DNA of 64,000 nt. Source: an uncultured Candidatus Saccharibacteria bacterium (GTDB lineage Bacteria; Patescibacteriota; Saccharimonadia; Saccharimonadales; Saccharimonadaceae). The notes beneath the pieces were generated by a model. It ran no database searches, was not told the origin of the DNA, and saw only the letters and a program-made list of their open reading frames with translations. The position numbers and the translations under genes were made by a program. The DNA lies in NCBI GenBank assembly GCA_945873065.1, contig CAMCBN010000003.1, positions 5,166 through 69,165 of the forward strand, in the 5' to 3' direction. Positions within the stretch are counted from its first letter, which is position 1. Each line of letters starts with the position of its first letter. Below are positions 30,055 through 42,074 of this stretch, in pieces.

Positions 30055-31530
30055 ATGAAACAACCTCAATTTGTAACATTGAAATTAGAAAAAATCGTTG
30101 GCGGCGGCCAAGCTATCGGTACGCTCGAAGACGGGCGCAAATGTTTTGTATGGGGCGGCCTGCCGGGCGAGACGGTAACAGTGCGCATTACCAAAAAGAA
30201 GTCGCGTTTCGTTGAGGGCGTAGTGGCGAAAGTTTTGGCTCCATCGCCCGAACGGATAGAGCCTCGCGACCCTGATAGTTATCTTTCAACCAGCCCTTGG
30301 CAGATTATGAGTTTCGACGCCGAACAACGGCATAAAGCTGCGCTGATCAAAGAAGCATTTGAGCTGCATAAGCTCGCTTTGCCGAATCCGATCGAAGTCT
30401 TTACCGACAGGCGAGAATTTCAATATCGCAACAAGGTTGAATTTAGCTGGTATAGCGACACGGTCAGTCTCGAGCCGCCTCATCCTCAGGACGATCTAGG
30501 TCAAAGCAGAGCTGTCCCGACAGATGATAGTGGTAAAAAGACGACGGACGACGCACGAGACACCCTCGACCTGGCATTCTTTCGCCGCGGCTCTAAAGGC
30601 AAGATCGTCGTGAACGGCACATCGCTGGCACACCCCGAAATTAACACTTTAGCCCGCACCATCCGCGACCTCCTGCGCACTAAGCCCGTCTCTGCCCGCA
30701 ACCTCAAAACTCTCCTCATCCGCTCAGATAAGCAAGGAAACTGCGTCTGGCAATTATATCTCAAAGATGAGCTGCTCGACCTCGTCACCCCCGATGAAGC
30801 CGCTGCGCTACCAGCCCAAGGCGGGGAAATTATTTATTCTGACCCCAAAAGCCCCGCCAGCCGCGTCACCAAGCGCCTGACTGCCTTCGGCGACACCACC
30901 CTCGCTGACACCATCCTCGGCGTCCCATTCCGCTACGCTTGTGAAGGCTTTTTTCAAGTTAACGTACCTGTGTACGAGCAAGCGCTGCGCGATATGAAGG
31001 AGTGGGTCAACGGCTCAAGTTTTGAATCGTCTCATTCTCAAAACAATCCGGAGCGAAGCGGAGCTGTTCTGATGAATGACGATAACACAGAGGCGGCGAA
31101 TAAGCAGGGAACATTAGACCTCTACTCCGGCGTCGGTACCATCGGCCTAACTATCGGCGGCTCGCACGTCACCCTCGTCGAAAGCAACGAACATGCTGTC
31201 AATGAAATGAAACGCAACATCGCCCAGCTTGGCCGCGAAAACACTGCCCGCGCCGTCCTGGCGCCCAGTGAAAAAGCCCTCGGCTATATCACCAGCGACC
31301 AGTTGGTCATCGTCGACCCGCCGCGCGCCGGCCTGCACGCCGATGTCATCGCCAAACTCCTCGAAGCAGCCCCGCCGCGCATCATCTATCTCAGTTGCAA
31401 CCCTGTTACCCAAGCCCGCGACGCCGCCCTCCTGGCCGCCAAATATTTCATCCGCGCTCACCGCGGCTACAATTTTTTCCCGCGCACACCGCACATCGAA
31501 CACCTCGTCGTGTTAGATAGAAAAATGTGA
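30055..31530 (+). CDS. TRAM-domain RNA (uracil-5)-methyltransferase, RlmD/RumA-like, with two in-frame insertions
   Basis: GGLPGETV TRAM, YRNKVEF, FFQVN, LDLYSGVGTIG, VDPPRAG, YLSCNP, FFPRTPHIE. Confidence 0.92.
   Translation: MKQPQFVTLKLEKIVGGGQAIGTLEDGRKCFVWGGLPGETVTVRITKKKSRFVEGVVAKVLAPSPERIEPRDPDSYLSTSPWQIMSFDAEQRHKAALIKEAFELHKLALPNPIEVFTDRREFQYRNKVEFSWYSDTVSLEPPHPQDDLGQSRAVPTDDSGKKTTDDARDTLDLAFFRRGSKGKIVVNGTSLAHPEINTLARTIRDLLRTKPVSARNLKTLLIRSDKQGNCVWQLYLKDELLDLVTPDEAAALPAQGGEIIYSDPKSPASRVTKRLTAFGDTTLADTILGVPFRYACEGFFQVNVPVYEQALRDMKEWVNGSSFESSHSQNNPERSGAVLMNDDNTEAANKQGTLDLYSGVGTIGLTIGGSHVTLVESNEHAVNEMKRNIAQLGRENTARAVLAPSEKALGYITSDQLVIVDPPRAGLHADVIAKLLEAAPPRIIYLSCNPVTQARDAALLAAKYFIRAHRGYNFFPRTPHIEHLVVLDRKM
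30474..30549 (+). repeat. In-frame palindromic element, copy 1
   Basis: Ungapped 46/76 identity to 31026-31101 with 28 of 30 differences being transitions; imperfect hairpin. Confidence 0.85.
31026..31101 (+). repeat. In-frame palindromic element, copy 2 (GCGAAGC apex)
   Basis: Homolog of 30474-30549 in the same frame (offset 552 nt); hairpin centred on GCGAAGC 31053-31059. Confidence 0.85.
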
Positions 31531-39929: not shown

Positions 39930-40035
39930 CTGGAGATGGTGCAATGACGCATCGTCTTCTCAGGTGACTCGCGAGATTCACTCGTGAAAGTAACCCTACC
40001 AGGATACTCTCGAGCAGAGCCGCTTGAGTCACCAC

Positions 40036-40075
40036 CCCCCTACCTCAATGACGAGGTAGGGGGCTTTTCCTTTTT
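40036..40075 (+). terminator. Intrinsic terminator
   Basis: CCCCCTACCTC-aatgac-GAGGTAGGGGG followed by CTTTTCCTTTTT. Confidence 0.85.
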
Positions 40076-40097
40076 GTGCTACAATTAACTAACAGAT

Positions 40098-41174
40098 ATG
40101 AGTTCGTTTTGGAATGACCTGCCGCAGCCGTTTTTCGTCCTGGCGCCGATGGAGGCTGTCACTGATGTAGTGTTTCGCCAGGTTGTCAGGCGGGCAGGCG
40201 CACCGGATATCTTTTTCACGGAGTTTGCTAATGCTACTGGCTGGGTGCACGCTGGTGATAAGGCCATCGCTGGGCGGCTGATCAAAACCGACGATGAACA
40301 CCCGCTGGTGGCGCAAATTTGGGGTGGCGAGCCAGGCGATATGGAGCAATTTGCGCGCCACTGCCGAGAGCTTGGTTTTGATGGGATCGATATCAACATG
40401 GGTTGCCCGGCCAAAAGCGCTATCAAATCGGGCGGGGCGGCGCTTATCCGGAGGCCAGACGTCGCAGTGGCAGCAATTCGCGCCGCCAAAACCGCCGGGC
40501 TGCCAGTCAGCGTTAAAACACGTCTAGGTTACACGTATGCCGATGAATGGCGCGATTGGCTGCGGGTACTGCTCGAGCAAGACATCGTCAACTTAACGAT
40601 CCACCTGCGCACGAAAAGGGAGATGAGCAAGGTGCCGGCGCATTATGAACTCATCGACGAAATTGTCGCGCTGCGCGATGAAGTCGCACCCCAGACACTA
40701 CTGACTATCAACGGCGATATTCGCGACCGCGCGCACGGCCTGGAACTCGCCGCTCAGCACCCCGGCATAAACGGCATCATGATAGGCCGCGGCGTATTTC
40801 ATGATCCGTTTTGCTTTTCGAAATCTGCGAGCGGTATCGCTGAAAAAAATCTGGGCGCGAAGCCGGGACCCGGATTATTTTTCAGTGACACCCGAACAGA
40901 TAGAGAGCTGACGGGGCTTGATGCGCCCGTCACAGCCTCCTCGACAGAGGATATGTCCACTCCTCACAGAGCCGAACTCCTTGAACTGCTCCGCTATCAC
41001 CTCGACCTCTTTGATGAATACCAACCTGTTCTCGAACGCCCCTTCGAAACCCTGAAAAGATTTTTCAAAATCTACATCCGTGACTTCGATGGCGCTAAAG
41101 AGTTGCGCGATCAACTGATGCACACCAGGACAACTGACGAAGCGCGACACGTTTTGCGAAGCGGTAGGTTATAG
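40098..41174 (+). CDS. tRNA-dihydrouridine synthase (Dus family) with in-frame palindromic insertion
   Basis: LAPMEAVTD, FTEF, DINMGCP, VSVKTRLG, TIHLRT, INGDI, GIMIGRG. Confidence 0.93.
   Translation: MSSFWNDLPQPFFVLAPMEAVTDVVFRQVVRRAGAPDIFFTEFANATGWVHAGDKAIAGRLIKTDDEHPLVAQIWGGEPGDMEQFARHCRELGFDGIDINMGCPAKSAIKSGGAALIRRPDVAVAAIRAAKTAGLPVSVKTRLGYTYADEWRDWLRVLLEQDIVNLTIHLRTKREMSKVPAHYELIDEIVALRDEVAPQTLLTINGDIRDRAHGLELAAQHPGINGIMIGRGVFHDPFCFSKSASGIAEKNLGAKPGPGLFFSDTRTDRELTGLDAPVTASSTEDMSTPHRAELLELLRYHLDLFDEYQPVLERPFETLKRFFKIYIRDFDGAKELRDQLMHTRTTDEARHVLRSGRL
40833..40932 (+). repeat. In-frame palindromic element in dus (GCGAAGC apex)
   Basis: Imperfect long stem 40833-40855/40869-40892 with GCGAAGC 40857-40863 in the loop; second hairpin TGACGGG/CCCGTCA 40909-40932. 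Confidence 0.8.
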
Positions 41175-41228
41175 TGGATTTTGAATTTCATTGTTGCCTT
41201 CATTGATTATTTGTGATCTAATGTATAT

Positions 41229-42074
41229 ATGGTGTATATTGAACGTTGGCCGACCAGCTTCATTGACCCGCAGACAGCCCAAGAAGGGTTAATGCCTGCT
41301 CTAAATAATCTACCAGAGGGGCATATTTTGTTGGTATCAGACCAAACAAAAGATATATCTGGTGTAGCCCAAGAAGTCACATTCGCCGAGCGCCCCGATT
41401 ACGAACAGGGCCGAGAACACAGTATGCACGAAGTTCATTTCGCTGATATGTCAGCCATAGGCAAGGACGACTCTACACTATCTGTACAGCCTGTTGCTAT
41501 CAAGCCGTATCCAAAGAGTTGGCCGTGGCTAGCCGAGCACGATTATGTTATTAGCAAAAAACTTAACGATCAGCACAACCGACAGATTGCTTACTCGACT
41601 ATCGGCTTCACTCGTTGGCACGGAATAGTCAGCAGCCTCACGCAATTCGAACAGGGCGTCACTAGTTGCGATAATCTACTATGGAAAGGTGAGAAACACC
41701 CCACCACACCTGAAGACATTCGACTAGCTCTAGGCGTGGCCGCTCAGACTTTGGTATTTTTGCATGATCTAGGCATGGTTCATGGTGATTTCGCTGTTCG
41801 CAATACTGCTTATGACTCGACTATGCAGTTCCGCGTCATTGACGTGACGACCACGCACCCAGACAAAACCCCAGACGAATTTTGTAGCGACATCTCTGCG
41901 TACATCGAGTCTATATCTGATCATACATGGGGGAACTCTGCTGTCAACAACCAACAGATAGCCGAATTATTCCTCGCCCCCTACAGAAAGACCGCTCCAG
42001 ACATCCTACCGAAATCTGCTCGTCTAGACATCACGAGATATGTCGACGCATTGATGCGCCATTACGATAAATAA
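41229..42074 (+). CDS. Hypothetical protein with protein-kinase-like catalytic motifs
   Basis: VAIKPY, LHDLGMVHGDFAVRN, VIDV resemble kinase subdomains II, VIb, VII. Confidence 0.6.
   Translation: MVYIERWPTSFIDPQTAQEGLMPALNNLPEGHILLVSDQTKDISGVAQEVTFAERPDYEQGREHSMHEVHFADMSAIGKDDSTLSVQPVAIKPYPKSWPWLAEHDYVISKKLNDQHNRQIAYSTIGFTRWHGIVSSLTQFEQGVTSCDNLLWKGEKHPTTPEDIRLALGVAAQTLVFLHDLGMVHGDFAVRNTAYDSTMQFRVIDVTTTHPDKTPDEFCSDISAYIESISDHTWGNSAVNNQQIAELFLAPYRKTAPDILPKSARLDITRYVDALMRHYDK

Follow-up and report, generated by a model that had tools for sequence, protein, structure and literature searches.

The question raised by this locus is what kind of DNA interrupts the tRNA-dihydrouridine synthase gene dus of an uncultured Candidatus Saccharibacteria bacterium, and how it came to lie within a reading frame that has remained intact. 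In the window, i.e., the whole stretch of 64,000 nucleotides that was analysed, dus occupies positions 40098..41174 of the forward strand and encodes a putative protein of 358 amino acids. The match of this protein to the Pfam family PF01207 (E = 3.5e-47) is restricted to residues 15-249 and stops at ...GRGVFHDPFCF; it is followed by about 45-50 additional residues, SKSASGIAEKNLGAKPGPGLFFSDTRTDRELTGLDAPVTASSTEDMSTPH, and then by the helical domain (..ELLELLRYHLDLF..). The additional residues are thus located between the catalytic (TIM) barrel and the helical domain. A preliminary description of the window had proposed that a segment of about 45 amino acids interrupts Dus, and this is confirmed by the end of the PF01207 match ahead of the segment and by the distance from DPF.F to the start of the first helix, which comprises about 10-12 residues in other families of the order and 52 residues in the window. 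Dus relatives with 75-79% identity are annotated as tRNA-dihydrouridine synthase of Candidatus Nanosynbacter lyticus or Saccharibacteria, and a metagenome homologue with 75% identity bears the name Candidatus Nanosynbacter lyticus.

Comparison of Dus homologues revealed that the content of this linker differs between close relatives. Many species of the same genus have a linker of 10-21 amino acids, while 24-125 amino acids are found among metagenome homologues, in which the linker is assembled like a mosaic from modules that recur. Four species of the same genus (G016, G018, G008 and G011) have a homologous insert at the identical nucleotide position of dus; four further genomes (G005, G010, G003 and G017) have a different large palindrome at this site, and yet others contain further inserts. 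Dus orthologues were recovered from 38 of 41 related genomes with zero stops in any of them, and the insert stays in-frame even where the Dus proteins have diverged deeply, to as little as 78% identity. One dus allele (L103, GCA_041827585.1) is the same as that of the window through the left arm of the inserted element (..CGAGCGGTATCGCTGAAAAAAATC), after which approximately 117 nt are absent. This allele is a deletion derivative, and its existence shows that the insert is dispensable. In an AlphaFold model, residues 231-287 of Dus are predicted as coil with a pLDDT below 50 and a helix starts at residue 289; this model, which was built from an alignment of 51 sequences, is poor (mean pLDDT 61), and it weakly suggests that the insert may be an unstructured segment linking the two domains. 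If the insert is translated, NLGAKPGPGLFFSDTR is one of the peptides expected.

The DNA of the insert contains inverted arms at positions 40833-47 and 40878-92. The RNA fold of positions 40820-40965 has a minimum free energy of -62.9 kcal/mol with a z score of -5.59, and an equally good fold was obtained in 0/200 shuffles. The best 70-nt segment of the dus hairpin (-32.9 kcal/mol) falls at about the 0.1 percentile of all segments of this length in the 854-kb genome. A genome-wide census of 70-nt folds exposed no families, the strong hairpins being mostly terminators or unrelated. The inverted arms and the fold bear out what had been described before, namely a hairpin with GCGAAGC in its loop that is followed by a second hairpin, here placed at about 40905-40937. 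The range of 40833-40960 originally assigned to the insert was refined and resolves into a palindrome of 79 nt at positions 40823..40901 (forward strand), which corresponds to residues 242-268 (KSASGIAEKNLGAKPGPGLFFSDTRTD), and the remnant of a second module at 40907-40956. The palindrome has a core at 40828-40896 and is composed of an outer stem (ATCTG/CAGAT), a tandem G.A box (CGAG/CGAA), the arms GGTATCGCTGAAAAAAATCTGGG and CCCGGATTATTTTTCAGTGACACC, and a 13-nt loop with the GCGAAGC heptamer at positions 40857..40863 of the forward strand.

Intrinsic terminator-like repeats consist of a G+C-rich hairpin with a short loop, followed by a T run. The assignment of the dus element to such a repeat, e.g., SPRITE, was considered and rejected: a consensus scan of positions 40000-41400 leaves the element uncalled, its loop comprises 13 nt and its T run is located within the stem.

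The palindrome of dus is found in other genes as well. A BLAST comparison of the insert with 105 species of the genus detected non-dus loci in many of them, with E values of about 1e-5 per genome. At least eight unrelated genes contain copies (E 1e-12 to 1e-24) that measure about 95 nt and for the most part resemble each other at about 75-90%, as estimated by eye from the alignments. These copies define a family, which is called family A here and has the consensus CGAG-Y-GGTATC-TCAGAAAAAATCTGGGC, a loop of 10-15 nt, and GGGNCCCGGATTNTTTTCTGA-GATACC-CGAG. The dus element scored 76 bits with the covariance model R1, which has matches in 32 of the 105 genus genomes (1-7 per genome with both strands counted, 52-94 bits). 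A second covariance model, R2, for which nine copies from genes other than dus were used, had the dus element of the window as its top match (63.4 bits, E = 4.1e-17), while the runner-up in the window reached 13 bits. Together with the fold and the alignments to copies from rlmD, mutM, mnmA and rnhB, these matches identify the first hairpin of dus as a significant member of a dispersed palindromic family. The loops of orthologous and paralogous copies read CAACTTTACGTGGGC, CTGGCTTACGT or GTGCTTGTCAC, and in a strain with 97% identity (P0001) AK is retained in the loop peptide. GCGAAGC is a lineage-specific feature of the loop and absent as a family trait.

Family A occupies at least nine sites in at least eight genes, and its distribution is confined to a single subclade within a Nanosynbacter-like genus; a search of 300 genomes from 218 other genera of the order yielded no copies. 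When 185,579 species genomes were scanned for the exact core pattern, all 75 occurrences came from Candidatus Saccharibacteria, including oral taxon 488, Minimicrobia vallesae, TM7 HOT-348 and a Nanosynbacter sp. Searches of Rfam and of phage collections produced zero matches to the element. The genome of the window itself contains one intact and two decayed copies, and a search for a second intact copy with blastn-short returned chance matches of 12-20 nt alone. Because of this single intact copy, the term 'repeat' is valid for family A across the clade and not within the genome of the window.

The host genes of family A were identified by their open reading frames, by blastx against the genome of the window and by Pfam. 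They comprise dus, rlmD with two sites, mutM, mnmA, an RNase HII-YraN fusion, an ABC-F ATPase gene and leuS. The RNase HII-YraN fusion carries one to two copies, some of which are nested or half, and the two copies in an rlmD-like methyltransferase gene of a relative are 627 nt apart. All examined copies are located inside coding sequence, the host reading frames are intact, and the copies at all sites are open and have a length that is a multiple of three. Filled, empty and partly deleted alleles are all present among orthologues. The mutM/Fpg site, for example, is empty in the genome of the window (G000; ..LVLRN|DLQQFGGGHP..) and extended by 27 amino acids in relatives. Several inserts sit between domains, as in Dus (barrel and helical domain) and in the fusion of RNase HII with YraN. 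The encoded peptides vary by frame and orientation (AEKNLG..GLFFSD; QKKFGQLYVGPELFSD; RASQKTIRDP..AQIFSETPLAP), and it is therefore the nucleic acid that is conserved and not the peptide. The possibility that all hosts are dispensable genes was dropped once leuS and the ABC-F gene appeared among them.

Two further segments of the window belong to this family. A relative of the window's bacterium (G113) has an RlmD with two well-kept family-A copies, encoding SQKKSGLAYVGPGLFSDD and SQKKSGQLYVGPGLFSDD, precisely where the RlmD of the window has odd segments. The segment at site a (positions 30466..30570, forward strand) is at the position of the intact copy L033:1487-1580, and that at site b (31009..31108, forward strand) at the position of L033:2116-2207. 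Because kept copies exist at both sites of the related gene, the RlmD inserts of the window are family-A orthologues that have decayed. R1 and R2 missed both of them even when run with filters off at E <= 10, so a model-based relation between the dus and RlmD inserts, the lack of which had been named as a refutation in the preliminary description, was not obtained, and the relation is shown by orthology instead.

The preliminary description had placed the dus and RlmD inserts in the same family, or in sister families, of in-frame insertions, and both parts of this proposal are upheld, although largely by other evidence than it had used. A common family is supported by the rlmD copies of the relative, the covariance model built from non-dus copies and the filled and empty sites. 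The in-frame insertion is evident from the intact host reading frame, the palindromic family element and the empty sites in orthologues, among which short, filled and deleted linkers were found, so that the segment is not universal. The match of 12 out of 15 positions to the second RlmD copy, from which the relationship had first been proposed, does exist but is at chance level: a search with this 15-mer that allowed up to three mismatches found three matches, compared to 1.66 expected, and 25/100 shuffles gave at least as many. GCGAAGC fails as a shared mark, with 14 occurrences in the window against 13 expected and with other loops in the orthologous copies; that the dus copy and the second RlmD copy both have it in their loops may be due to gene conversion or to a subfamily specific to this lineage. 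Finally, the impression that RNA-modification genes are the targets is weakened by mutM, the RNase HII-YraN fusion, the ABC-F ATPase gene and leuS.

The second part of the dus insert, at positions 40907..40956 of the forward strand, includes the second hairpin and encodes approximately residues 270-287 (ELTGLDAPVTASSTEDMS). It is 92% identical to L104:1092-1141 and represents the right-hand remnant of a different module, module C, which in full has about 126 nt with perfect inverted ends of 29 nt and is found complete in a metagenome relative, within the linker of its dus gene (L104:1023-1148). Module C occurs in both directions: the dus gene of another genome (G096) has the module interior in the opposite orientation, and two protein alleles (P0018 and P0022), which are 85% identical overall in a gapless alignment, are distinguished by the interior, which is inverted exactly and in-frame in one relative to the other (..SSVSEYSLRVASPARGVRLTGLDAPITASSTED.. 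versus ..SSVEEAVTGASSPVSRTPRAGEATRKEYSEAED..). The inversion of module C rests on the DNA of the former and on the protein alignment of the latter two. In other species, the corresponding site of dus harbours a member of a third and unrelated family, family B, whose elements have about 107 nt. Family B was found in 47 of the 105 genomes, e.g., inside the GTPase domain of LepA, and none was found in the genome of the window.

The complementarity of the arms is strongly maintained in family A. In 43 distinct copies, 95.5% of the stem cells pair, and changes on both sides were observed in 17 of the 26 pairs (114 cells), a number that was reached by 0/500 shuffles, while controls with slid pairing gave 4-6 pairs. 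The dus copy of the window forms 22 of the 26 model pairs, and copies at different sites each have their own complementary arm variants. The orthologous dus copies of the window and of G016 are identical at 52 of 92 positions; they differ by six compensatory pairs, with two to three pairs broken, and encode different peptides (AEKNLGAKPGPGLFFSD and PQKKFGQLYVGPELFSD). Thus, the symmetry of the nucleic acid has been kept and the peptide has not. Template-switch mutagenesis at quasipalindromes is an established process, in which copying of one arm onto the other yields covariation without selection. The arm symmetry of family A could persist by such strand-switching or by gene conversion between the arms, or by structural selection, and the strong covariation could equally reflect selection for a functional hairpin.

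Copies in both orientations are found at the dus, mutM and rlmD sites, in different species. This fits an inversion by recombination between the arms as well as repeated insertion, and we infer that in-situ inversion rather than re-insertion is responsible. The occupancy in two orientations, together with the unrelated palindromes that other lineages have at the same place, could also point to site-specific targeting rather than to tolerance combined with in-place flipping.

Several features that are commonly associated with mobile elements were considered. Terminal inverted repeats are present in the sense that the entire family-A element is palindromic and that module C ends in the 29-nt perfect inverted sequences. 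CGAG...CGAG as a target-site duplication was rejected, because it is constant across the host genes and located inside the stem as the tandem G.A box; at the filled and empty mutM sites, no flanking direct repeat besides CGAG was seen. A Y1/HUH transposase (PF01797) is encoded in 17 of the 105 genus genomes, only one of which carries family A. A RAYT/IS200 partner was rejected, since PF01797 is missing from 31 of the 32 carrier genomes, and the search for a partner within the Y1/HUH family thus found none for family A in the 105 genomes. Family A looks old and inactive, because there are few copies and most sites are common to several species.

Taking these results together, we consider it likely that the Dus segment is fossil, non-autonomous palindromic debris that resembles the RPEs of Rickettsia and is translated as a tolerated, disordered linker. 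A family-A repeat of about 80 nt would have inserted in-frame into the Dus linker that joins barrel and helical domain, in an ancestor of several related species, and in the lineage of the window a truncated right half of module C would have come to adjoin it. Most likely, the two pieces are both transcribed and translated, and they would form an unstructured loop of about 45 residues that Dus tolerates and that has no known benefit; the insert is presumably neutral. The family would have spread in the past, and it now appears to be inactive and decaying by deletion. Recombination between the arms could flip the element, which would result in both orientations at one site.

The maintenance of the arms could alternatively indicate that the hairpin is kept by selection for a role of the RNA or DNA, such as slowing of the ribosome between domains, mRNA stability or processing, or a protein-binding site, the mobile origin being secondary. 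The pairing of 95.5% of the stem cells and the two-sided changes in 17 of 26 pairs would be expected in this case, as would the six compensatory pairs between orthologous dus copies with a peptide that is free to vary and the interdomain position of several inserts (Dus; RNase HII and YraN). However, the insert is missing in most species of the genus and in all other genera tested, the L103 allele has lost one arm, and the rlmD copies of the window have decayed. In addition, arm-to-arm copying of a near-palindrome would yield the same covariation without selection, the element has no match in Rfam and a simple scan finds it not terminator-like. We therefore regard selection for the hairpin as unlikely. 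It is quite unlikely, too, that the palindromes are self-maintaining, invertible in-frame coding cassettes, in which the arms would stay complementary while the interior flips to provide alternative linker peptides, with the hairpin being kept for a task at the mRNA or DNA level, such as interdomain translation pausing or marking the site of a recombinase.

An adaptive role could also reside in the protein, if the insert were a flexible, partly basic linker (..KK.G..) that improves the binding of tRNA or other nucleic acids, which would account for the prevalence of nucleic-acid enzymes among the hosts. All hosts found so far, i.e., Dus, RlmD, MnmA, MutM, RNase HII-YraN, LeuS and ABC-F, as well as LepA for family B, bind nucleic acids or the ribosome, and the in-frame retention extends down to 78% Dus identity. 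We nevertheless find this improbable: the same DNA is read in several frames and orientations and gives unrelated peptides, alleles of one gene carry the insert, lack it or replace it by other modules, and the region is predicted to be disordered; moreover, genes of this type account for much of what an 850-kb genome contains, and the bias is weak and was noticed post hoc. Removal of the segment from the mRNA in an intron-like manner or from the protein in an intein-like manner is highly improbable. A strong hairpin could in principle join splice ends, but a segment of about 27 + 17 codons falls far below the size of inteins and of group I/II introns, there is also no Rfam match, and the open copies with a length that is a multiple of three would be needless if the segment were excised. 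In Rickettsia, translation of the Gmk that bears an RPE includes the insert (PMC2229807). A reading without any mobile element, in which palindromes arise locally in a fast-evolving dus linker and resemble other genes by chance, could account for the extremely variable linker length of 24-125 amino acids and for the chance level of both the 12/15 match and the GCGAAGC count. It is refuted by the copies of about 95 nt in at least eight unrelated genes at E 1e-12 to 1e-24 and by the 75 occurrences of the core pattern in Saccharibacteria alone among 185,579 species genomes, and retains next to no probability.

The palindromic debris favoured here provides an explanation for odd lengths and apparently novel insertions in housekeeping proteins of Saccharibacteria, of which the Dus linkers of 24-125 residues are an example. 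Such inserts should be treated with caution and not be read as functional domains, and they are usable as strain-typing markers. Further interest comes from the modular, invertible organization of the Dus linker and from the strong upkeep of arm complementarity. The N. lyticus strain TM7x is cultivable (PMC12369343). A database protein named Nanosynbacter lyticus Dus (P0010) carries the family-A module. Since the module is present in this protein and TM7x can be grown, translation and tolerance of the insert might be testable in N. lyticus, once the presence of the module in TM7x is confirmed.

REPs are extragenic sequences of about 20-40 nt that co-occur with RAYT proteins of the Y1/HUH type. 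Family A shares with the REP/RAYT systems the short hairpin-forming repeat, but identity with them was rejected, because all its examined sites are coding and Y1 is present in just one of the 32 carriers. Bacterial MITEs with open reading frames, such as the 107-bp form of Correia/NEMIS, ERIC and YPAL (PMC2229807), are likewise small and non-autonomous and have terminal inverted repeats and a long hairpin. In contrast to family A, for which neither a duplication nor a partner of the Y1/HUH type was found and all examined sites are coding, these MITEs lie mostly between genes and are flanked by duplicated target sites (TA or other), and for some of them a partner IS is known. PARCELs consist of a 25-residue amphipathic motif that is repeated in tandem in proteins of unknown function located in the membrane or at the surface (PMC2996958). 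They resemble family A by a coding dyad symmetry that is readable in either orientation, by their occurrence in minimal-genome bacteria and by their supposed mobility, whereas family A consists of single copies in cytoplasmic enzymes and has no conserved amphipathic motif. Identity with PARCELs was rejected, given the lack of tandem arrays and the cytoplasmic enzymes as hosts.

The closest resemblance in behaviour is to the RPEs. These are elements of 105-146 bp with long stem-loops that belong to several families and form in-frame fusions in 19 conserved genes of R. conorii, which contains 44 copies; an RPE-bearing Gmk is translated and active (PMC2229807; PMC10969869). RPEs were described by Ogata et al. 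(2000, 2002; reviewed in PMC2229807 and PMC10969869), and protein-coding palindromic repeats of Wolbachia by Ogata et al. (2005; cited in PMC2229807). Both RPEs and family A are short palindromes with long stem-loops that are placed in-frame in conserved housekeeping genes of host-dependent bacteria with reduced genomes. In both cases several families exist, sites are filled or empty among relatives and the insert is thought to be tolerated; RPEs have no linked transposase, and for family A none of the Y1/HUH type was found. They differ in that family A belongs to an unrelated phylum (Saccharibacteria/Patescibacteria), to which its core motif is limited, that it has about 80 nt instead of 105-146 bp, and that it is present in 1-7 copies per genome instead of the 44 of R. 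conorii. The examined sites of family A are all genic, while RPEs are also found in intergenic regions and in RNA genes. Both orientations at one site and in-frame inverted module alleles were observed here and are unmentioned for RPEs in PMC2229807 and PMC10969869. Membership of family A in the RPE families of Rickettsia proper (RPE-1 to RPE-10) was rejected on the basis of its occurrence, the core pattern being confined to Saccharibacteria among 185,579 species genomes. Family A is RPE-like in its behaviour and not an RPE by sequence or taxon. Searches of full-text literature yielded no account of comparable elements from Saccharibacteria. Protein-coding palindromic repeats, which had been held to be a peculiarity of Rickettsia and later of Wolbachia, are now found as families A, B and C in the unrelated Saccharibacteria, and this suggests that intragenic selfish DNA is a general outcome of a host-dependent life with a reduced genome, in which selection is weak and intergenic space is scarce.

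Family A, the in-frame palindromic element of about 80 nt carried by the tRNA-dihydrouridine synthase gene dus, also occupies other protein-coding genes. In the genus of the window, RNase HII and a YraN/UPF0102 nuclease domain form a single fusion protein, and the interdomain linker of relatives (loci L080, L083 and L092, positions about 590-760) contains one full copy of family A together with a second that is either a half copy or interrupted. The corresponding linker in the window's own genome, G000 (contig C2:144600-145694), is shorter and has no recognisable family-A copy. In other Saccharibacteria, in-frame copies are present in the essential gene for leucyl-tRNA synthetase and in an ABC-F ATPase gene (L136:1217-1314, L166:6466-6565 and L160:1233-1329).

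The dus allele of GCA_041827585.1 (L103:890-1030) represents a naturally occurring deletion derivative of the family-A insert: it is identical to the window sequence up to the end of the left arm of the element, the next ~117 nt are absent, and the encoded Dus protein (P0021) comprises 329 amino acids.

A second palindromic family, family B, is about 107 nt long and unrelated to family A. In other species, such as G005 (L008:712-850), family B takes the family-A site in the dus linker, and in G088 it is found in frame within the GTPase domain of LepA (lepA, L102:1245-2318). In the genus, family B is dispersed over 47 of 105 genomes, and a single genome yields as many as seven matches; the family is multi-copy in G006, G051 and G043, and no copy is present in G000.

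Y1 transposase genes of the IS200/IS605 type were detected in 17/105 genomes of the genus, including G006, which has the maximum of nine matches, G051 and G043. Across these 105 genomes, the transposase genes and family A do not tend to be found together. Outside the window, G000 encodes a large serine recombinase with Pfam Recombinase and Zn_ribbon_recom domains (C6:82912-84603, minus strand), and the 3' part of this ORF is repeated on another contig (C2:97579-98154, minus strand). This repeat contains the hairpin that, at -50 kcal/mol per 70 nt, is the strongest in the genome. The ORF and its repeated 3' part probably represent an integrative element.

Module C, the second palindromic module of the dus linker, is bounded by perfect inverted repeats of 29 nt (L104:1023-1148). 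Its interior is found in both orientations, each in frame and in separate lineages, which results in two unrelated peptides of equal length (L104:1023-1148 and, on the minus strand, L032:1380-1600; proteins P0018 and P0022). A 40-nt hairpin internal to module C, TACTCTTTACGGGTGGCTTCGCCAGCCCGTGGCGTTCGG, also occurs on its own, in multiple copies, in two further species, G055 (six loci, e.g., C1:53297-53337) and G060 (C19:87775-87819). Its occurrence outside module C suggests that these modules are assembled from smaller hairpin units.
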